From: a virus
Lineage: Duplodnaviria > Heunggongvirae > Uroviricota > Caudoviricetes
Length of the DNA stretch: 48,941 bases
Strand: one strand, 5' to 3'
Virus record (IMG/VR): IMGVR_UViG_2802429253_000004
Part shown: positions 3,019-21,246 of the stretch, piece after piece
How positions within the stretch are numbered: the stretch's first letter is position 1
How the letters are laid out: the number at the start of each line of letters is the position of its first letter
Made by a program: the position numbers and the translations under genes
The notes under the pieces: generated by a model
The model's input: the letters and a program-made list of their open reading frames with translations, nothing else
The model's database searches: none
What the model was told of the DNA's origin: nothing

Positions 3019-3262
3019 GGCTTTCGCGTCGAAAATGAGGCGAAACTGAAAACGAGATTTCATTAACAAATAAGCAACATAAAAAACGGTGGAAAACGCC
3101 CAGGAAAACATGATCTTTTGAGCGGATTTTTTAGATCCGACAATGAACGGTGATCCGGTGGTGCCGATAACGTCCATTATGTTAAATAGCCCCGTTTTTC
3201 TTGAAATTATAACTCACAGGTTATATAGTTAGTGATATAAACTACAGGTTATAGGATTGAGC

Positions 3263-3610
3263 ATGTGGACGGTACTTTTTAGCCAGCGATTTGACGACTG
3301 GCTAAATGAGCAAGAAGACGCTCTTCAGGAAAAGGTTTTGGCTGATTTGAAAAAGCTACAGGTTTACGGACCTGAGTTACCCAGGCCATATGCCGATACC
3401 GTAAAAGGTTCTCGGTACAAAAATATGAAAGAGCTTCGCGTTCAGTTTTCTGGCCGTCCGATAAGAGCCTTTTATGCGTTCGATCCGATTCGCCGGGCCA
3501 TCGTTCTTTGTGCAGGAGACAAAAGTAACGATAAGCGGTTTTATGAAAAACTGGTGCGTATAGCTGAGGATGAGTTTGCAGCACATCTGAACACACTGGA
3601 GAGCAAGTAA
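3263..3610 (+). CDS. higB: Type II toxin, RelE/ParE superfamily, HigB-like (Gp49-like killer protein)
   Basis: About 115 aa; toxin-first order with an overlapping downstream HTH antitoxin (stop and start share 3608..3612). Confidence 0.65.
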   Translation: MWTVLFSQRFDDWLNEQEDALQEKVLADLKKLQVYGPELPRPYADTVKGSRYKNMKELRVQFSGRPIRAFYAFDPIRRAIVLCAGDKSNDKRFYEKLVRIAEDEFAAHLNTLESK

Positions 3611-3909
3611 TGAGAACATTAGATGAGGCGATTGCCAGCCGTTCACCGGAAAGCCAGGCGCGAATTAAAGAAATGGCAGATGAGATGATTCTTGAGGTCG
3701 GCTTGCAGATGATGCGTGAAGAACTCCAGTTATCACAAAAACAGGTTGCTGAGGCGATGGGTATAAGCCAGCCAGCAGTAACAAAGCTGGAGCAGCGCGG
3801 AAATGATTTAAAGCTGGCGACATTAAAGCGTTACGTTGAAGCTATGGGAGGCAAATTAAGCCTGGATGTTGAGCTTCCCACAGGAAAACGAATAGCGTTT
3901 AACATCTGA
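3610..3909 (+). CDS. higA: Type II antitoxin, XRE-family HTH, HigA-like
   Basis: 99 aa; HTH motif LSQKQVAEAMGISQPAVTKLE; translationally coupled to the upstream toxin. Confidence 0.65.
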   Translation: MRTLDEAIASRSPESQARIKEMADEMILEVGLQMMREELQLSQKQVAEAMGISQPAVTKLEQRGNDLKLATLKRYVEAMGGKLSLDVELPTGKRIAFNI

Positions 3910-3924
3910 TCAGAACGAATGATA

Positions 3925-3952
3925 AGCCCCTGTTGCAAAGGGGCTTTTTTGT
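3925..3952 (+). terminator. Rho-independent terminator after the higBA-like pair
   Basis: Stem AGCCCCT/AGGGGCT with 7-nt loop, then TTTTTT. Confidence 0.7.
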
Positions 3953-3955
3953 GCT

Positions 3956-4072
3956 TATAGAATTATATAATTATAGATTTATATAAAAAGTGCTTTACAG
4001 GTGGGAAAAAATTTCCTATGGTTATACCCGAAACCGAGCGATACCCGCCCTGGTTAAACCGGAGATAACCCG
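3956..4072 (+). promoter_or_regulatory. Promoter/leader cassette, copy A (AT-rich iterons, -35 TTTACA, 17-bp spacer, -10 TATGGT, conserved ~45-nt leader with GGAG ribosome-binding site)
   Basis: Near-identical to 13991..14118 and 20858..20974; each copy ends at the ATG of a different gene. Confidence 0.6.
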
Positions 4073-4453
4073 ATGAGCATGATTAAAATCCGCAAAAACG
4101 CTTTCCTTAAAATTCAAACTATCCTGGCTGGTTCTGTTGGCGTGATTTGCCGTTCTTCCTCAAGCCGCATCGATGACTGCTACGATGATGAGTATCGTGT
4201 GTCCTCATGCGATGAGGCTTTAACCTGGCTGAAGGAGAATCAGGAACGTGCCCAGGTATATCTGGAAACAGAGAACGGCAATCAGATGCTGCGTATTAGC
4301 GGTCGTTATGGATTTGAAACTACATTCATGGCCTATTTTAATCAGGCTTACTTTGACAAGGAGTTGGCCTGGTACACTGATCGCATGAGCAAAAGCGAGC
4401 CAGCCCCGATTACACCGCCGAACAATAAACCATTTTTATTCCTCGTTAAGTAA
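4073..4453 (+). CDS. Hypothetical protein driven by cassette copy A
   Basis: 126-aa ORF whose ATG directly follows the conserved leader. Confidence 0.5.
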   Translation: MSMIKIRKNAFLKIQTILAGSVGVICRSSSSRIDDCYDDEYRVSSCDEALTWLKENQERAQVYLETENGNQMLRISGRYGFETTFMAYFNQAYFDKELAWYTDRMSKSEPAPITPPNNKPFLFLVK

Positions 4454-6096: not shown

Positions 6097-7237
6097 ATGG
6101 TTTTGCACCTGCGGCCAGTTTATCCGCAGATATTTTTATCAGTTCCTGTAGTGTCCTGGCTGGCAGGTTTGCATCCAGAACGCTGAGTATGCTGTTGTGA
6201 TCAGCCTGGTCGACTACTTTGCCTGTCGGTGGTAGTAGCTTGAGCTGAGGATTCAGGTTTTCGTCAAAGCTGATAAGTGCTCTGGCGTTTCTGAGCAGAT
6301 CAAGAAGTAAGGCTGATATCACATCATCTTTAGTCATTGTTGGTAGATTTAGTGCCGCTTTAGTTTTCTCCGTCGCCTTGTCAAACTCTTTGATTAGTGT
6401 CTTGCGGTAGTTTGGTTCTGTTAATAGCCGATGATGTTCTGTTGCCGTTCGGATAATCTTTGTTTCCTGATACAGTCGGTTGTATAGCATTCGCTCGTAT
6501 TCTGCCTTTAACACGCTGCTGATAGCGTTAAAGGCTTCAATGTAGGCCAGCTTGATATCCTTCACGCCTGGACCGTCGATACTTTCCATGAGCAAGGTAA
6601 ATCCGTCTTTTGTCATGCGATAGATTGTTATTTCGCGGTCGCTTCCTTCCAGCGGTCGTTGCTCTTTAAAGAAATGACGCGCCGCAGCCGTGCGAGGAAT
6701 GCGTAATGCATCGATGGCCATTACGATGGAATTGTTTGTGGTGCTGAATGCTTGGGCAACATCGGCTGAGGTTGTGAGTGGCTCGTTGTTGCACACCTTA
6801 ATGTAATACATCGGTTTGGCATTGAGTGTATCGACAACCTCACGAGCATTGTTTGGCGAGACGGTTACGGTCGCGGCCGTTTGCGCGTTCTGGTTGAAGT
6901 AGCAGTCTTCCAGCCGTTCGAATACATCCCACGCCTGATCGGTTTCGAGCATTTTAGCGTGACGTGCAGCCCCGCGTTCGGTCCAGAGGATGAGTTTTCT
7001 AACGTTATTCGCGATGGTTTGAAAATCTCTTAAAGAGATTTTCAAACTTTGGAGATCTGTACCTTTTACAACTATGAAATGTTTTCCTTCTGTAAACCGG
7101 GACTTATTACGGTGGTGATTTCTGTGAAGACATTCGACGCTACAGCCATATAGTTTGGCAAGCAGCTCCGTGGTGATAACGGGGAGCTGGTTATGCAGGA
7201 TAGGCTGTAGGGTGTTAACGGTCGGAAGCGTTTTCAT
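6095..7237 (-). CDS. Antirepressor-like regulator with ORF6N-type N-terminal domain and Rha domain
   Basis: 380 aa; N-terminal segment ending LWTERGAARHAKMLETDQAWDVFERL, central Rha-like segment ITIYRMTKDGFTLLMESIDGPGVKDIKLAYIEAFNAI. Confidence 0.7.
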   Translation of the reverse strand: MKTLPTVNTLQPILHNQLPVITTELLAKLYGCSVECLHRNHHRNKSRFTEGKHFIVVKGTDLQSLKISLRDFQTIANNVRKLILWTERGAARHAKMLETDQAWDVFERLEDCYFNQNAQTAATVTVSPNNAREVVDTLNAKPMYYIKVCNNEPLTTSADVAQAFSTTNNSIVMAIDALRIPRTAAARHFFKEQRPLEGSDREITIYRMTKDGFTLLMESIDGPGVKDIKLAYIEAFNAISSVLKAEYERMLYNRLYQETKIIRTATEHHRLLTEPNYRKTLIKEFDKATEKTKAALNLPTMTKDDVISALLLDLLRNARALISFDENLNPQLKLLPPTGKVVDQADHNSILSVLDANLPARTLQELIKISADKLAAGAKP

Positions 7238-7612: not shown

Positions 7613-7875
7613 TGCGCCATTGTGTCTACGGGGTTCCAATCCCGACCGTAGATTTTGCTACGGCTCGGAAAGTGTCCACCAATGGCGCATTCATGTCAAT
7701 ACGGCGGGATTTTAACAGAGGCAACCACATAGCGTGGGTTTGAATGCAGGGCTTTTAATTTTCTTGATATGCTAAGAACGGGAATGTATAGTTCCTGTAA
7801 GGAACAAATCAGTCCTAAATTGTGATGTTTTGTTAAAGTTGGGAACAAGAAAAAAATTTATTATGGGGATAAAAA

Positions 7876-8415
7876 ATGATTGAACCGTCAAAAAACTCAT
7901 GTTTTTCAACCATTCACCTAATGATCATAAAAGAACTTAGGCTAGAAAGAGGTGTGCATCAAGGGATGCTAGCTCAAGCTGCTGGTAAAACACCGAACGC
8001 ATGGACAAAGATAGAGAACGGGCAGTCTGTATTAACAGTTGACGCACTTTTTGGTGCTTTCACAGCCCTTAATATTACTCCAGTGAATTTCATGTCATTG
8101 GTAGAAAATCTTATTTCCGAATTTAACCGTTATGGTTACCACTTCCATCCAGGAACCATTCCTCTGGAAGAAGATAGTCTTTTGCCTCTGATGCTGCGTT
8201 ACTTTAATAGCAAGGGGTTTGAAGCATTGAGAAATAGGCCATTCGAAAGAATTAGCATAAGCTCAATGGGGTTCTCATTTGGGGGGGGCATCCCTGTTAC
8301 TCCAACTGCTGTAATGTATTGTTGCGATGAAGCATATAGAAATTGGGTCGATAACGGCGCTGATATGGATAATCGAGATTATCTGAAGCCATTAACAGGT
8401 CTTGGACGGTTTTAA
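7876..8415 (+). CDS. XRE-type HTH protein with an uncharacterised C-terminal domain
   Basis: 179 aa; HTH near residues 20-60 (GMLAQAAGKTPNAWTKIENGQS); transcribed divergently from the antirepressor operon. Confidence 0.55.
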   Translation: MIEPSKNSCFSTIHLMIIKELRLERGVHQGMLAQAAGKTPNAWTKIENGQSVLTVDALFGAFTALNITPVNFMSLVENLISEFNRYGYHFHPGTIPLEEDSLLPLMLRYFNSKGFEALRNRPFERISISSMGFSFGGGIPVTPTAVMYCCDEAYRNWVDNGADMDNRDYLKPLTGLGRF

Positions 8416-8834
8416 TGAGTGAAGAAACAAAAAAACCGCCCTATTGAGGACGGTTCTTTCGTGCTGATCGGATTCGCAGTCCTTTCAGCATAACGTCGTT
8501 GTATAAATACAACCACGCAAGCACAAACAGCGTTCTTATTCTTACCTAACTGAATAAAATTGTCCAAATAAATTTGGTTTATTAGAGCACAAAAGCAAGT
8601 GATATTTTGTAATATGCGGTTAAGTCAATGAAAAACAATATTTTTTTATCCCTTCATTATGAAGGGGCGGCGGCGTAACATTACGCGGGGCCTTTTCGCC
8701 GATTCGCACCCGGGCACCGACTTTCAGGAAAGGATTATCCAACCGCCGTACCACGCAGGCACAAACAGCGTGCTTGCTCTCGCGTCATTTTCGTCGGTGG
8801 AGATGCCGTGGAACGGCCTGCGAGGGCCAATACA

Positions 8835-8992: not shown

Positions 8993-9142
8993 TTAAACGC
9001 TGGAGCGCATTAAGCCTTTCAGAACTGCTTCACGTACCCATTCTGGCCTGGTGGATAGCAGGGCAAATAAGCGACCAGCTTGCAGCCGTTTGAGGTCGGT
9101 TAGACGAGTTTTCAGTAACCGTGTATATTGTTGCTCGGACAT
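8993..9142 (-). CDS. Small hypothetical protein downstream of the partition operon
   Basis: 49 aa from the internal Met, with an AGGGGAA ribosome-binding site; same strand as parA and the RHH gene. Confidence 0.35.
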   Translation of the reverse strand: MSEQQYTRLLKTRLTDLKRLQAGRLFALLSTRPEWVREAVLKGLMRSSV

Positions 9143-9204: not shown

Positions 9205-9453
9205 TTACTTCTGGTTGTATTGAGCCTTGAGTAACTCAAAAGATTTTGTCAGCACTTCTTTCAATGACATATCCATTGAGCTGGCGAATGTTTTGTACTC
9301 ACGTTTAAATTCAGGGTCGACGTTAAACGCCATTTGTGCTCCACCTGATTTGGTTCTGGTCGGCGTTTCAGTCGGGTCGAAAACCTGCGGTTGTTCGATT
9401 GATGGCGGTACGCCTTTGCTGTTCTTCTTTGGTGGTTTTGATGGTGCGGCCAT
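9205..9453 (-). CDS. Small partition protein, ribbon-helix-helix ParG-like centromere-binding protein
   Basis: 82 aa directly downstream of parA; unstructured basic N-terminus then an RHH-like segment MAFNVDPEFKREYKTFASSMDMSLKEVL. Confidence 0.6.
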   Translation of the reverse strand: MAAPSKPPKKNSKGVPPSIEQPQVFDPTETPTRTKSGGAQMAFNVDPEFKREYKTFASSMDMSLKEVLTKSFELLKAQYNQK

Positions 9454-9465
9454 GTGTATCCCCTC

Positions 9466-9497
9466 TTATATAAATCTATAAAACTATAATTATATAT
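9466..9497. repeat. AT-rich 15-bp iteron pair (TATAGAWTTATATAA family, inverted orientation) downstream of the partition operon
   Basis: TATATAAATCTATA and AAACTATAATTATATA; same motif family as at 3956, 10172, 10246, 13991, 15218, 19728 and 20858. Confidence 0.7.
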
Positions 9498-10165
9498 TAC
9501 GCGGCAGTAGTCAGAGCCTCAAGCTGGTTGATAATCCCCTGAATAACGTCGTCTGCCTTTTTGCGTGGCGCAACGTATGAACACTCAATGAGGCTTAAGC
9601 CCTTATCCTGAGCTTTGCTCAGAGCTGGCTTGTGGGGAATGTACTTATCGACAACAAAGTATGGCGTATTAGCCAGGTACTCTTGGGCTTCGATGTAGTC
9701 AGCTTCGTTTTCAGCCGCGCCGGAAAACACCATGCAAATTTTCTTGATTGGTACACCCTTTTTAACGATGCCGTGAGCTGTGTTAACGGTGGTTTCCAGG
9801 TCATCGGTAGAGAATCTGGTTGGCAAAATAACCATATCCAGAAATTCAGAGAGCTTCGGTACTGATTCAGATGCGTAGGCACCGCCATCGACGATAACCA
9901 GGTCGTATACTTCTGATTCGATGATTTTCTGGACTTGTGATGGTGTGCCGCACGGCTGCGCCGCGATTGCTGGTTCGATATTGTTGGCCATTCTGCGTTG
10001 TACCCAACGCGTTACCGTTCCGTTAAGCACATCCATATCGATCAGGCATACATTCCAGCCAGCCTTTGCATAAGCAACTGCTAAAGCACGAGCAATGGTT
10101 GATTTGGTTACGCCGCCTTTTCCGTTGAAAATACCTACAGATATAGTCATTTGTCGAGACTCCAT
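9497..10165 (-). CDS. parA: Partition ATPase ParA, small type Ib (ParF/Soj-like)
   Basis: 222 aa; deviant Walker A GKGGVTKST near the N-terminus. Confidence 0.85.
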   Translation of the reverse strand: MESRQMTISVGIFNGKGGVTKSTIARALAVAYAKAGWNVCLIDMDVLNGTVTRWVQRRMANNIEPAIAAQPCGTPSQVQKIIESEVYDLVIVDGGAYASESVPKLSEFLDMVILPTRFSTDDLETTVNTAHGIVKKGVPIKKICMVFSGAAENEADYIEAQEYLANTPYFVVDKYIPHKPALSKAQDKGLSLIECSYVAPRKKADDVIQGIINQLEALTTAA

Positions 10166-10171
10166 ATGTTT

Positions 10172-10277
10172 GATTATATAATTCTATAAATCTATATTTA
10201 TAGAATGAGGTAAGCATAACCAACTTTTTGGCGGATGAAAAGTGTTTTATATAATTATATAAATCTATAATCATATA
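10172..10277. repeat. Two blocks of AT-rich iterons immediately upstream of parA (candidate centromere/operator)
   Basis: Blocks 10172..10207 and 10246..10277 each carry two or three copies of the 15-bp unit in both orientations. Confidence 0.7.
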
Positions 10278-10300
10278 AGCGGGCGTTAGCCCGCTTGCAG

Positions 10301-10675
10301 TCAGAGGTCAGCTATCGTTGATATCAGTTGATTTGCTAGCTGTCGCTGTTTACGTGAGAGGGTTAGAGCAGCTTCTGAGCGGTCGCTAAGAGGGGTGTTT
10401 TCATCGAGAATCATGAGGCATACAGAAATAATAGCCCTGTTATATGCCATCAATGGCTGGCACAGCTTCGATACCGCTGGCACATCGTATTGTAAGGCCG
10501 TTTTGAGGCAGACTTTTTGTTCTGATGCCAGATGAAGGATAGATTCTATCCAGTCGATATCTTTCTCATTATCAATGATTTGGCATAACATACACTCAAT
10601 CGCTATGTTCAACGCTTGGATTTCGATTCCAGCAGTGATCAGAGTTTCGTTTTTATTGGCTGTATGTAATTCCAT
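10301..10675 (-). CDS. Hypothetical protein downstream of cI on the same strand
   Basis: 124-aa ORF; likely co-expressed with the repressor in the lysogenic/plasmid state. Confidence 0.5.
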   Translation of the reverse strand: MELHTANKNETLITAGIEIQALNIAIECMLCQIIDNEKDIDWIESILHLASEQKVCLKTALQYDVPAVSKLCQPLMAYNRAIISVCLMILDENTPLSDRSEAALTLSRKQRQLANQLISTIADL

Positions 10676-11424: not shown

Positions 11425-11462
11425 GTCTCATCAATCGTGAATGGTGGGTTATTTATACATTA

Positions 11463-11579
11463 CCACATTTAGTGGTTTTCACATGGTAAGACGAGAGGTG
11501 GACCACAAATAGAAGGTTATTTTTTGTTTCGCCCATTGAAAAACTCACGATATGTGGTTTTAATACCACATATCGTGGT
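11463..11579. promoter_or_regulatory. Divergent cI/cro promoter region with at least two full operators (ACCACATTTAGTGGT at 11463..11477, ACCACATATCGTGGT at 11565..11579) and a half-site
   Basis: Repeated ACCAC-N5-GTGGT dyads in the 175-bp intergenic region; larger palindrome CACGATATGTGGTTTTAATACCACATATCGTG. Confidence 0.6.
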
Positions 11580-11598
11580 TTTAACTGGAGTTCGTTAA

Positions 11599-13990: not shown

Positions 13991-14118
13991 GAATATCGGA
14001 AATCTATAAATATATAATTATAGATTTATATAAAAAGTGCTTTACAGGTGGGAAAAAATTTCCTAAGGTTATACCCGAAACCGAGCGATACCCGCCCTGG
14101 TTAAACCGGAGAAATCTG
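13991..14118 (+). promoter_or_regulatory. Promoter/leader cassette, copy B
   Basis: Near-identical to 3956..4072 and 20858..20974; directly downstream of the Q-like gene. Confidence 0.6.
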
Positions 14119-15186
14119 ATGAATAAACAAGTAATTATTTCTGACTGGATCAACAACCCTAACAGCCTGTTGAGCACTGATACTGGCTATAGATTACGTC
14201 ATGTTAATGGCCGTATGGTCAAAAGCGATGAGCACGAAACCTTTTTCGTTGTTGAAGACGATGGACGTCTTTATGAGGATGGTCACTCTTATGAATCCCA
14301 AACAGGTTGTATCCCTGCGGAGTTGGTAGACGTAACAGAAAAGCTGCGCAAAGCATGGCTTGAACAGCAGCAGCGCGGAGATGATTACGTAAATACCTAT
14401 CAGGAACGCCAGAACGCGCGTCTTGCCCGATATATTGCTCGTGCAGAAAAAGCTAGAAAAGAAGGTGCGGTGGCGCATAAGCGAGCGCATGAACTGTTGG
14501 ATGTGATCCCGTTAGGCCAGCCGATTTTAGTTGACCATTATAGCGCGAAAGGCCATCGCCGCCGTTTGTCTAAAGCTGATGCGTTATTCAGAAAATCGTT
14601 TGTTGAGTGTGAAAGCAGAGCATCGTACTACGAAAGCAAAGCCGCAGGTGTCGGCCGTAATGGAGTTTCGTCTGATGATCCTGATGCGCTATTTAAGTTG
14701 CTTCGTAAGCTGCAAGGCTGCATGAAGTCACACATCAAAATGAAGGCCGCAAATAAGGCTATTCGCAAATACAAAAAAGACCAATTACAGCAGCTTTCCG
14801 CATTAATTGACCTTGAGTTTACTGAAAGCGAAGCCAAAGAGTTACTCGCCGGAGATTTCTGTGGGCACATTGGCTTTCCTTCATACTCACTGAGTAACAA
14901 TAACGCCGAAATCAAACGCCTACAGAGCCGTATTAAAGAGCTTGAATCGGTCAAGTCTGTAACAGGATCACAGCGCGAAGAATACGACGGCTTTTCTATG
15001 GAGGTAGATCCAGAGGATAACCGCATCCTGTTTTATTTCCCTGGCAAACCAGAGGCAAACATTCGTTCGCTGCTTAAATCACGCGCCTTTAAGTGGAGTC
15101 CAACCCGTAATGCATGGGTTCGCAAGATTACTCCAAACGCCCTGGCTGATGCCCGATATCTGAAAGAATCGCTATTGAAAGCCTGA
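14119..15186 (+). CDS. Hypothetical 355-aa protein, first gene after cassette copy B
   Basis: Long ORF with basic, coiled-coil-like central region; function not recognised. Confidence 0.6.
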   Translation: MNKQVIISDWINNPNSLLSTDTGYRLRHVNGRMVKSDEHETFFVVEDDGRLYEDGHSYESQTGCIPAELVDVTEKLRKAWLEQQQRGDDYVNTYQERQNARLARYIARAEKARKEGAVAHKRAHELLDVIPLGQPILVDHYSAKGHRRRLSKADALFRKSFVECESRASYYESKAAGVGRNGVSSDDPDALFKLLRKLQGCMKSHIKMKAANKAIRKYKKDQLQQLSALIDLEFTESEAKELLAGDFCGHIGFPSYSLSNNNAEIKRLQSRIKELESVKSVTGSQREEYDGFSMEVDPEDNRILFYFPGKPEANIRSLLKSRAFKWSPTRNAWVRKITPNALADARYLKESLLKA

Positions 15187-15242
15187 CAGTAAGCCTACGG
15201 CGGGATGTCTCCCGCCGTATATAGAATTATATATTTATATAA

Positions 15243-15545
15243 ATGTATAAGGACGCCTCGACAATGAAACGCAAAATTATTAACCCCCAAGATGTGATTA
15301 ATTTCCTGACCGATCACCCATGTTCAAAAGTGGACGTAATCGCGGAGCACATTGGTGTGTCGCAGAACTCTATGCGTTGCAGACTGAGAAGCATGGTTGC
15401 CGAAGGACAGATAACAACCAGGAAAATAAATGGTTGCCTGTACTACTCCGCTAAACCGGAATTGCCATTTGGCATGAATCCTAACTCCATGTTGTTTAAC
15501 ACCTTATTAGCCAAAGTTAAGCCGTTGAGAGGGGCTGTGGCATGA
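15243..15545 (+). CDS. Small winged-helix-like DNA-binding protein
   Basis: Segment DVIAEHIGVSQNSMRCRLRSMVAEGQI is HTH-like; start uncertain (15243 or 15264). Confidence 0.45.
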   Translation: MYKDASTMKRKIINPQDVINFLTDHPCSKVDVIAEHIGVSQNSMRCRLRSMVAEGQITTRKINGCLYYSAKPELPFGMNPNSMLFNTLLAKVKPLRGAVA

Positions 15546-19605: not shown

Positions 19606-19729
19606 TACCGCCTGTGATTGGGTAAAGCCCATCTACCTGACTGATCACGACATCGATGTTATGGACCGCCAGACAAAGAAAGATATTCTGGCTCATAACA
19701 GGGCATGGGAAATCAACTGCCAAAAGTAA
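19520..19729 (+). CDS. Spanin outer-membrane lipoprotein subunit (Rz1/LysC-like), nested in an alternate frame
   Basis: Signal peptide with lipobox LIASC; overlaps the 3' end of the i-spanin gene out of frame. Confidence 0.5.
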   Translation: MYSRVLTIWLMTMLIASCGSRGSVPVVVDTACDWVKPIYLTDHDIDVMDRQTKKDILAHNRAWEINCQK

Positions 19730-19890
19730 TATATATTTCTATAAATATATAGTTACAACATTCTATACGCTTTTCTCATGAGCGCACGCATCAACCATGT
19801 TTGTCTGATATGCCGCCGCGCCCAAAAATCCTGAATTTATTGGCTGGGATTTTCGTGCGCGGCGCCACACCAGACAAACAAATCAAATAT

Positions 19891-19966
19891 GGCCCCTTAG
19901 CTCAGTGGTTAGAGCAGGCGACTCATAATCGCACGGTCACTGGTTCAAGTCCGGTAGGGGCCACCA
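19891..19966 (+). tRNA. tRNA with CAU anticodon (tRNA-Met, or tRNA-Ile2 if lysidine-modified)
   Basis: 76-nt cloverleaf: acceptor GGCCCCT/AGGGGCC, D-arm GCTC-AGTGGTTA-GAGC, anticodon loop CTCATAA, T-arm ACTGG-TTCAAGT-CCGGT, encoded CCA. Confidence 0.85.
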
Positions 19967-20274: not shown

Positions 20275-20862
20275 ATGGAGGCAATTGTATTGTTTAATCT
20301 GATTTATGCAGATCCCCCCTGGGAATACAAAGACAAGTGTAAGGATGGGAATCGTGGCGCTGGTTTTAAGTATCCAACGATGAAAGCTGAGGAGATTGCT
20401 CGTATTCCTGTCTGGCAGCTTGCTAATCCTGAATCGTGTTTGTTGGCTATGTGGTGGGTTCCGACTCAGCCAGAAGAAGCGTTGCTGGTGGTGAAAGCAT
20501 GGGGATTCAGGCTTATGACCATGAAGGGCTTCACATGGAACAAATGTGGTAGCCGACAGCCAGACAAGCTGGTGATGGGGATGGGACATATGACTCGTGC
20601 AAACAGTGAAGATTGCTTGTTTGCGGTAAAAGGCAAATTACCGACACGTCTTGATGCGGGGATCATTCAGTCGTTTACATCGCCTCGTCTGGAGCATTCT
20701 CGGAAGCCTGATGTGGTCCGTGACAAACTGGTAAAGCTGTTAGGCGATGTTCCTCGTATTGAGCTGTTTGCTCGCGGTGATTTACCTGCTGGCTGGCATG
20801 GCTGGGGCAACCAGTGCAACGGAGGTATCCAGTTGCATGATGCTCTCTGGCAAGTGTCATAG
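20275..20862 (+). CDS. MT-A70-family N6-adenine DNA methyltransferase
   Basis: DPPW catalytic motif (IYADPPWEY) near the N-terminus; 195 aa; no adjacent restriction endonuclease. Confidence 0.8.
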   Translation: MEAIVLFNLIYADPPWEYKDKCKDGNRGAGFKYPTMKAEEIARIPVWQLANPESCLLAMWWVPTQPEEALLVVKAWGFRLMTMKGFTWNKCGSRQPDKLVMGMGHMTRANSEDCLFAVKGKLPTRLDAGIIQSFTSPRLEHSRKPDVVRDKLVKLLGDVPRIELFARGDLPAGWHGWGNQCNGGIQLHDALWQVS

Positions 20863-20974
20863 AATTATATAATTATAGATTTATATAAAAAGTGCTTTAC
20901 AGGTGGGAAAAATTTTCCTAAGGTTATACCCGAAACCGAGCGATACCCGCCCTGGTTAAACCGGAGATAACCCG
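20858..20974 (+). promoter_or_regulatory. Promoter/leader cassette, copy C
   Basis: Near-identical to copies A and B; ends at the ATG at 20975. Confidence 0.6.
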
Positions 20975-21196
20975 ATGAAAGAACAAGACCGTAAAGTAAT
21001 GCGTATTTCCTTCAAACGTGCGACTGAGCAGCAACGCAAAGAGTTCCTGGCTGATGATGTAGCGGCCGTTTATGACCTCATGAAAGAGGTTGTGGAATCA
21101 GGGAACTACACGGCGGCAAAGATGCTTAAACTGCAATTCTTGCTGGGCGACCTGAAATACAAATCCGAAGTTGTCGCCGGACGACGCGAGCATTAA
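20975..21196 (+). CDS. Hypothetical 73-aa protein driven by cassette copy C
   Basis: ORF directly after the conserved leader; terminator downstream. Confidence 0.45.
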   Translation: MKEQDRKVMRISFKRATEQQRKEFLADDVAAVYDLMKEVVESGNYTAAKMLKLQFLLGDLKYKSEVVAGRREH

Positions 21197-21216: not shown

Positions 21217-21246
21217 CGAGCCTCGGCAATTGCCGGGGCTTTTTTA
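21217..21246 (+). terminator. Rho-independent terminator
   Basis: GC-rich hairpin (GCCTCGGCAATTGCCGGGGC) followed by TTTTTT. Confidence 0.6.

Follow-up and report, generated by a model that had tools for sequence, protein, structure and literature searches.

Arrays of an 8-bp repeat at parA and at dispersed sites of a myovirus phage-plasmid: candidate targets of a predicted ribbon-helix-helix partition protein

The omega protein of plasmid pSM19035 (Inc18) is a ribbon-helix-helix (RHH) ParB whose six parS arrays overlap the copS, delta and omega promoters, and at least four contiguous repeats are required (PMC9499535). ParG of plasmid TP228 binds as one dimer per box to 4-bp boxes that alternate with 4-bp AT spacers (8-bp period) in both orientations, and these sites, located upstream of and over the par promoter, serve as operator and centromere (PMC3130281). 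The centromere of the phage-plasmid N15 is made up of four sites, IR1-IR4, scattered through the genome (PMC7205306, citing Ravin and Lane 1999). The present analysis concerns a stretch of 48,941 nucleotides (IMG/VR virus record IMGVR_UViG_2802429253_000004; hereafter the window), in which arrays of a short AT-rich repeat lie around the partition gene parA and at several other places. The 48.9-kb window represents an essentially complete circular myovirus phage-plasmid. Phage-plasmids are common in clinical Enterobacterales, and the coordination of plasmid maintenance with phage gene expression in them is largely unknown.

The arrays are probably the cognate sites of the ParG-like RHH centromere-binding protein of the element, serving as operator and centromere of the par locus and reused elsewhere as dispersed operators or extra centromeres. 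The decisive evidence comes from comparison of lineages. The sequences directly show the arrays and their statistics, positions and conservation, the co-variation of the unit at par and dispersed sites, and the occurrence of such arrays with parA and this type of small protein on unrelated plasmids; the binding of the RHH protein to the arrays, their action as centromeres and the sign of any effect on transcription are inferred. The par region of the window is ~99% identical to that of ~60 plasmids of 46-52 kb from E. coli, E. albertii, E. fergusonii and Klebsiella, including the 48.5-kb plasmid of E. coli ATCC 25922 and p48 of strain 1428, and ~98-99% identical to that of vB_YpM_39, 41 and 44, Yersinia phages recovered in the form of virions. 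About 60 complete PLSDB plasmids belong to this phage-plasmid family alone.

The repeat unit, the arrays and the par locus

A first-pass annotation of the window had described the repeats as a family of 15-bp iterons that flank the partition operon and are reused as operators. The 15-mer TATAGAWTTATATAA has 25 matches at up to two mismatches against 0.29 expected from dinucleotide shuffles, and all the strong matches fall at the loci which that annotation had listed. The actual repeat unit, however, is 8 bp long: it occurs as TTATAKAW, as the reverse complement WTMTATAA or as the palindromic TTATATAA, and the 15-mer is made up of two adjoining units. A scan for four in-phase units returned exactly eight arrays at seven loci in the window, spread over 17 kb, and an independent repeat finder recovered the same arrays in the same register. 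In Markov simulations (training on the whole window for orders 1, 3 and 5, and on its intergenic DNA, arrays included, for orders 1 and 3), no array arose under any model against seven to eight observed, and the array scan found none in the 22-49 kb portion of the window despite the higher AT content there. The repeat family is thus real and non-random.

All the arrays consist of four contiguous units (32 bp) except that at 19729-19752, where the window has three and close relatives carry four or five. The exact loss of 8 bp at this position provides independent confirmation of the unit length, and insertion or deletion of whole units is the mode in which the arrays change. The array previously placed at 13991-14025 lies at 14002-14033. 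The coordinates of the arrays and the associated features are given in Table 1.

Table 1. Arrays, par genes and promoter features of the window (positions counted from its first letter).
Feature	Coordinates	Strand	Description
parA	9497..10150	-	217 aa, small type Ib ParA ATPase with deviant Walker A GKGGVTKS; Pfam CbiA/ParA/MipZ
RHH gene	9205..9453	-	82-aa predicted ParG-like RHH protein, candidate centromere-binding protein and array binder
49-aa ORF	8993..9142	-	Downstream of the RHH gene, past a GC-rich hairpin; possible third operon gene
Putative parA promoter	10213..10241	-	-35 TTTTCA (10241-10236), 17-bp spacer, -10 TATGCT (10218-10213); read from the sequence
Array A1	3955..3986		Four units; 7 bp upstream of the cassette 1 -35, directly after terminator 3924-3946
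Cassette 1	3994..4076	+	-35 TTTACA (3994-3999), -10 TATGGT (4017-4022), SD GGAGA, ATG 4073
Array A2	9466..9497		Four units; overlaps the parA stop codon, ends 12 bp before the RHH start codon
Array A3 (proximal par)	10174..10205		Four units at ~+2 to +33, just downstream of the parA -10
Array A4 (distal par)	10247..10278		Four units at ~-41 to -72; ends 5 bp upstream of the -35
Array A5	14002..14033		Four units upstream of cassette 2 (-35 14041-14046, -10 14064-14069)
Array A6	15219..15250		Four units right after hairpin 15199-15216, 13 bp before the ATG of ORF 15264-15545
Array A7	19729..19752		Three units; upstream of tRNA gene 19891-19966 (~140 bp) and of the MT-A70 methylase gene
Array A8	20857..20888		Four units over the MT-A70 stop codon, upstream of cassette 3 (-35 20896-20901, -10 20919-20924)
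ORF, open reading frame; SD, Shine-Dalgarno sequence.

The size and domain content of the window ParA fit type Ib, the small Walker-type proteins without an N-terminal DNA-binding domain, and the start codon at 10150, preceded by the SD sequence GGAG, is identical to that annotated by RefSeq. The protein also matches the NCBIfam model ParA_partition, below the cut-off of that model. Among PDB sequences the sole match at E<1e-5 was the ArsA ATPase, and no detectably close ParA-family partition ATPase of solved structure was found. As the small ParA adjoins the gene for a small, predicted RHH protein, the pair has a type Ib, ParF/ParG-like architecture. The 49-aa ORF (MSEQQYTRLLKTRL...TRPEWVREAV...) may be a third gene of the operon.

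Read along the minus strand, the parA control region consists of the terminator hairpin of the upstream gene, A4, 5 bp, TTTTCA-17-TATGCT, 7 bp and A3, and 23 bp containing GGAG separate A3 from the parA ATG. The promoter was not called by the promoter scan because it falls below the 9/12 threshold. The 43 bp separating parA from the RHH gene are occupied by A2. Repeat arrays at or over the par promoter, a sequence feature of type Ib loci, are thus present, with two arrays around the -35/-10 and one before the RHH gene. Contrary to the first proposal, the arrays do not flank the partition operon: they lie on either side of the parA promoter and in the parA-RHH gap, and none is found downstream of the RHH gene. 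Nor is the term iterons appropriate, no array being present near repA or the origin region.

Away from parA, A1, A5 and A8 head a 120-bp direct repeat which constitutes a complete promoter cassette in the order array, 7 bp, -35 TTTACA, 17-bp spacer with the palindrome GGGAAAAAATTTCC, -10 TAWGGT, 5' untranslated region (5'UTR) hairpin, GGAGA and ATG. The three cassette arrays occupy ~-43 to -74, and altogether four of the eight arrays abut a -35. Of the other two dispersed arrays, A6 directly precedes the ribosome-binding site of a further gene and A7 lies upstream of the tRNA gene.

Lineage-specific recoding of the unit and the candidate binder

Conservation of the arrays was examined in relatives at increasing distance. 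In the Salmonella relatives (~80% nucleotide identity, RHH protein 91% identical), arrays of the same unit are present at 8/8 positions with the units reshuffled in order and orientation, and identity is 72-97% in these arrays but 42-87% in the 60-bp sequences flanking them. PLSDB and IMG/VR also contain distant members of this backbone, which have ParA proteins 39-55% identical to that of the window and have CI, the early genes, Ref and DUF1064 in common. The new phage-plasmid lineages came from a ParA search of viral contigs; a ParA search of genome contigs returned only loci of the conjugative-plasmid type and distant loci, and no new phage-plasmid lineages. In each of the distant members two arrays sandwich the parA promoter and more arrays are present elsewhere, most of the non-par arrays being located upstream of the -35 of a homologous cassette, mostly by 7-9 bp.

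Co-variation of the unit was compared over eight lineages of this backbone, some of which are denoted below by L numbers. The core is TATAGA in E. coli and Salmonella (unit TTATAKAW in the window), TAAATA in Serratia (TTAAATAW), TAAAGA in L030 (TTAAAGAW), GATATA in L028, L032 and L033 (TTATATCW), TATATA in L031 (TTATATAW) and GCTATAA in Salinicola (L034; unit TTATAGCN), the last in DNA of 62% GC. A cross-lineage scan allowing four mismatches cross-matched the lineages because AT-rich palindromic variants are common to all the units, and it was replaced by counts of diagnostic hexamers and by 6-mer cosines. According to the hexamer counts, the par and the dispersed arrays carry one common core within each lineage. 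Seven lineages have a 6-mer cosine of 0.92-0.99 between their own par and dispersed arrays and L034 one of 0.67, while between specificity groups the value ranges from 0.00 to 0.67.

To judge from these sequences, the par and the dispersed sites are read alike by one lineage-specific DNA-binding specificity. The earlier proposal that the site of a centromere-binding protein has been reused at dispersed, promoter-proximal positions is strongly supported by the unit changing in step at both kinds of site. Although the sequence of the arrays has been rewritten, their distance to the -35 (mostly 7-9 bp) is retained, and this closeness despite full rewriting argues for a functional link to the promoter.

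Small conjugative plasmids of the MPF_T type bear on the identity of the protein that reads the arrays. At the tblastn level they share only ParA with the window (46% identity), and parA is followed by a gene for a 77-aa protein of the same RHH architecture that tblastn does not detect. AT-rich arrays of 8-bp period flank their parA promoter on both sides and also occur between parA and the RHH gene and in other intergenic DNA. Thus, such arrays accompany parA and this type of small protein on otherwise unrelated plasmids. The RepA proteins of these plasmids have no significant match in the window apart from one weak partial match in L007. Salmonella, Salinicola and the conjugative plasmids each have an equivalent of A2, and the array/promoter/array layout at parA is kept in all the relatives and in the unrelated plasmids with this par pair. 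In L041, a distant metagenomic member of the family, TTAGCGAW units surround the parA promoter. A dispersed network of RHH sites may, on this comparison, be a general property of the par family.

The dispersed AT-rich arrays of the MPF_T/MOBC plasmids L005, L006, L007 and L011 share a TATTTTTATA-type unit; those of L006 (NZ_CP126328.1) are located at 1510, 3282, 9960, 11154, 11841 and 12806, and one array of the conjugative plasmids lies upstream of a thermonuclease gene.

Type Ib ParAs are known to lack a specific DNA-binding domain, and the RHH protein is for this reason the candidate binder. Three proteins had been put forward at the outset, and the RHH protein is the sole fit among them. 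The gene for the helix-turn-helix (HTH) protein at 7876-8415 is located in an indel; p48 lacks this segment and still has all eight arrays, and the cI-cro region, expected to be bound by the CI-like repressor, has other palindromes and no array.

In the AlphaFold2 (AF2) model of the 82-aa protein, residues 1-40 form a disordered basic N-terminal tail and helices are confidently predicted at 46-58 and 63-79, with the RHH domain at 41-80; this is the picture expected of an RHH monomer. A full HMMER scan gave 102 representatives of the family, of 70-90 aa. Among 70 aligned members, Pfam RHH_10 is matched in 36/70, Antitox_RHH in 20/70 and ParG (PF09274) in 3/70; at the ParG gathering score the window protein gives no match, and the three ParG matches are weak (best E 2.7e-4). 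The family profile matched solely RHH proteins in PDB (56B, ParG 1p94 and an antitoxin; E 0.17-0.7), and hhalign aligned the whole RHH domain with ParG at a probability of 70.8%, the core of the ParG sequence used agreeing with the family-profile PDB alignment. The family is listed as unknown in PHROGs. The genes of distant family members that were looked up (3/3) are located directly downstream of a ParA of 213-223 aa.

The predicted beta-strand of the RHH protein is the same or nearly the same within specificity groups and differs between them, the forms being QMAFNVD/QMSFNVD, PMNFNMD, LMNFNVD, QLLLRLD vs QLLLQLD, and KLVNFRW. QLLLRLD goes with GC-containing units and QLLLQLD with units mostly lacking GC.

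Promoter cassettes and the maintenance backbone

Cassette 1, with its palindrome at 4003-4017 and a conserved 5'UTR hairpin at 4032-4055, drives the ORF 4073-4453; cassette 2 drives a DUF3560 gene (14119-15186) and cassette 3 the ORF 20975-21196, downstream of which lies a terminator (21218-21241). Cassettes 1 and 3 thus comprise one gene and a terminator-like hairpin after it, with a further one before cassette 1, and the DUF3560 gene is followed by a GC-rich hairpin without a T-run. By its sequence the cassette layout is moron-like. PADLOC, PHROGs, Pfam and NCBIfam provided no function for the cassette-driven genes beyond DUF3560, and all those proteins near arrays that were checked belong to PHROGs of unknown function.

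A second operator-like palindrome (GGGAAAAAATTTCCT; in general TAGGA-N5-6-TCCTA) is present in the -35/-10 spacer of every cassette promoter (4003-4017, 14050-14064 and 20905-20919) and also at 2398-2412 and 7074-7088. In contrast to the arrays, it is conserved across all the lineages. The copy at 2398 lies in the promoter-like context TTGCCA-17-TACCAT, with no array, upstream of the ORF 2432-2731, which weakly matches a PHROG annotated as transcriptional repressor. The cassette 5'UTR stem-loops (4032-4055, 14079-14102 and 20934-20957) lie between the -10 and the SD sequence GGAGA; the stem AACC/GGTT of the window is replaced by GGCC/GGCC or GACC/GGTC elsewhere, 3/6 predicted pairs showing compensatory changes. 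No Rfam match was obtained for the cassette 5'UTR, which may be a translational or stability control element.

The start context CTCGACAATG downstream of A6 is common to the ORF 15264-15545 and parA. In the more general form GGA(G/C)NCTCGACAA(A)TG, it stands directly downstream of an array at parA (10150-10173) and at the ORF 15264-15545 (15251-15266), and the array together with this context also heads non-homologous genes in Salmonella, Serratia and IMG/VR relatives. The recurrence of these sequences suggests a portable 5' module copied from parA. The tRNA at 19891-19966 has a CAT anticodon and is classified by ARAGORN as tRNA-Met and by RefSeq, for the p48 homologue, as tRNA-Ile; it may be a lysidine-modified tRNA-Ile2.

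In the cI-cro region (11440-11580), palindromes of the ACCACAT..GTGGT type occur, such as an inverted repeat with 14-bp arms at 11545-11578, which was also scored as terminator-like on both strands in the promoter/terminator scan. From their sequence and location, the palindromes are presumably CI/Cro operators.

The RefSeq annotation of p48 includes repA, a HigBA-like toxin-antitoxin pair, a Rha/ORF6N antirepressor-like gene, parA, the CI-like repressor, an early operon, lysis genes, the tRNA and a long plus-strand operon for ParB/Srx-like proteins, terminase, head proteins and a contractile tail. Serratia pJSRIV006_2 (L003) shares the plasmid and early module (repA, par, CI, early operon, arrays and cassettes) and combines it with a lambda-like siphovirus structural module, whereas in E. 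coli and Salmonella a contractile-tail module is attached to the same maintenance backbone. This arrangement of the sequences indicates that virion genes are exchanged as modules on a conserved maintenance backbone.

Relative to p48, the window carries an insertion at 7742-8422 that bears the 179-aa HTH gene 7876-8415, whose product resembles HipB/Y4mF-type antitoxins (NCBIfam). No homologue of it was found in any relative examined, and it was rejected as a binder of the arrays. A 31-nt sequence (ACCACGCAAGCACAAACAGCGT...) is directly repeated at 8512-8542 and 8750-8780, at a distance of 238 bp, in the non-coding DNA that separates the HTH insertion from the small ORF.

Proposed function, its alternatives and related systems

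In the proposed explanation, one RHH dimer would bind each 8-bp unit through its beta-ribbon and four dimers would cooperatively coat the 32 bp of an array. The par arrays A2-A4 would act as the operator for autorepression and as the centromere for ParA, whose ATPase would be stimulated by the basic N-terminal tail of the RHH protein. The five dispersed arrays would provide additional centromere sites for the partition protein and would give it control over terminator-insulated single-gene units, and owing to this layout the genes under array control are probably expressed in the plasmid state. At the cassettes, repression appears most likely, by occupation of the zone of the UP element and the alpha C-terminal domain (alpha-CTD) at ~-43 to -74, while some of the terminator-adjacent or promoterless arrays would perhaps be centromere-only.

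Several points weigh against this explanation. Co-variation alone cannot single out the RHH protein, as all the proteins of the element diverge between lineages, and it is phylogenetically confounded; the argument for the RHH protein needs the unrelated plasmids, in which parA and a small RHH-type gene are the only common content. The 82-aa protein alone has no match in Pfam, NCBIfam or PDB sequences, fold searches with monomer models gave nothing useful, and the assignment of the predicted RHH fold draws on weak family-level matches and on predicted secondary structure. No sigma-70 promoter can be recognised next to A6 or A7 and some arrays of L030 and L031 are flanked only by terminators, so that a transcriptional role is not established for every site. 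Repression and activation cannot be told apart from the sequence. Literature searches found no publications on this phage-plasmid family or its par system; the single paper that had seemed relevant dealt with a P1-like plasmid.

The same promoterless and terminator-flanked arrays would suit a reading in which all the arrays are centromere sites of the RHH protein and ParA and the copies near promoters have no transcriptional effect. Four contiguous repeats are the minimum functional parS of the pSM19035 RHH ParB (PMC9499535), and N15 uses four dispersed centromere sites (PMC7205306). This reading is nevertheless rather unlikely: in the cassettes of all the lineages examined the fully rewritten array stays mostly 7-9 bp from the -35, the upstream array of parA belongs to an arrangement expected to autoregulate, and ParG and omega use the same kind of site as centromere and operator. 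There is a still smaller chance that the arrays are bound by another protein of the element, namely the 49-aa ORF, the 124-aa ORF 10301-10675 or the CI-like repressor. Co-variation by itself does not tell which of the diverging proteins is responsible, and every phage-plasmid lineage has the 49-aa ORF in the same gene cluster. However, the identity of this ORF is 74-78% in L028, L031, L032 and L033, as compared with 53-55% for ParA and ~40% for the RHH protein of these lineages, and 35-47% in L030 and Serratia L003; being so similar between lineages whose units differ, it does not track the specificity. The ORF 10301-10675 has no detectable homologue outside E. coli and Salmonella, CI has the arrayless cI-cro region with its other palindromes against it, and the array-bearing conjugative plasmids share only ParA by tblastn and encode a small RHH-type protein after parA.

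It is very improbable that UP-element-like AT tracts or binding targets of host proteins (alpha-CTD, H-NS, Fis or IHF), boosting or silencing promoters, account for the arrays, for all that the array sequences are AT-rich and that three arrays and the distal par array lie in the UP-element zone (~-41 to -75). As sole explanation, the UP-element alternative offered by the first-pass annotation fails, since a UP element would be confined to ~-40 to -60 of a promoter whereas A3 follows the parA -10 and A2 is intergenic, and since the units are lineage-specific. The core switches between lineages in closely related hosts, in step at par and dispersed sites, and a conserved host alpha-CTD target is unlikely given that the unit is rewritten lineage by lineage; moreover, some arrays of relatives are flanked by terminators alone, the Salinicola unit contains GC (GCTATAA) in 62%-GC DNA, and the length of four 8-bp units is strict, with indels of whole units. 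Hardly any weight is given to the arrays being RepA iterons or origin-associated repeats. They are short, repeated and AT-rich and had been so named, but the repA-ori region (600-2450) has no array and instead carries the DnaA-box-like TTATCCAC and other repeats, the arrays are spread across 17 kb, and the conjugative plasmids without a significant RepA match (L007, with its weak partial match, excepted) carry like arrays at parA.

If the RHH protein, as proposed, reads the arrays and controls several promoters as well, a single circuit would link partition, incompatibility and accessory-gene expression, as in pSM19035 of the Firmicutes but in a Gram-negative virus-plasmid hybrid. The lineage-wise recoding of the whole set of sites represents a natural experiment on the co-evolution of a DNA-binding specificity with its dispersed targets and yields ready-made orthogonal protein/operator pairs. 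A broader reading, held only tentatively, would make the RHH partition protein the master regulator of a plasmid-state regulon across the phage-plasmid family, its specificity having switched at least four to five times with concerted rewriting of all the 5-8 dispersed arrays. If it is true, incompatibility or partition specificity and cassette transcription would form a single recoding unit, gene expression could respond through the arrays to plasmid copy number or segregation state, and the logic would extend to the unrelated small conjugative plasmids that use this par pair.

The likeness to KorB or P1 C1 sites drawn in the first-pass annotation holds as a loose analogy, and closer precedents are found in omega of pSM19035 and ParG of TP228. 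KorB (IncP plasmid RK2) and StbA (R388) are centromere-binding proteins with sites at several plasmid promoters and coordinate partition with transcription; both are HTH proteins of conjugative plasmids, the OB sites of KorB being single palindromes and those of StbA 9-bp repeats. Like N15, the window element is a plasmid prophage with several scattered candidate centromere sites. N15, however, has type Ia sopAB, the HTH protein SopB, single palindromic sites and a linear replicon, whereas the window has a small ParA, an RHH-like partner and tandem 8-bp units.

With omega/delta of pSM19035 the system shares a small RHH centromere-binding protein with a ParA-interacting N-terminal tail (predicted in the case of the window), and arrays of short contiguous units, direct and inverted, dispersed on the replicon at promoters of different operons. 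Omega needs at least four repeats and the window arrays have exactly four (three at 19729-19752). The omega unit is 7 bp (WATCACW) in arrays of 7-10, as against 8 bp in arrays of four. The regulon of omega comprises copy control and omega-epsilon-zeta, a cassette with a toxin-antitoxin pair, whereas the window targets are single-gene cassettes; unlike in the omega regulon, no array is present in the window upstream of repA (820-1800) or higBA (3257-3909). pSM19035 belongs to the Firmicutes and the window element is a phage-plasmid of a Gram-negative host, and no omega chain was found among the family-profile PDB matches at E up to 10.

With ParF/ParG of TP228 it shares a small ParA followed by a protein of 76-82 aa with a flexible N-terminal tail and a C-terminal RHH domain (both predicted for the window protein), and an 8-bp site period with direct and inverted orientations. 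The TP228 box is ACTC and the window core TATAGA; TP228 has 20 boxes at one locus, dispersed sites not being described there (PMC3130281), while the window has dispersed arrays. The system is thus omega-like in its working and ParG-like in its build, and by sequence it is a member of neither family. RHH partition sites that double as operators are already known from omega and ParG.

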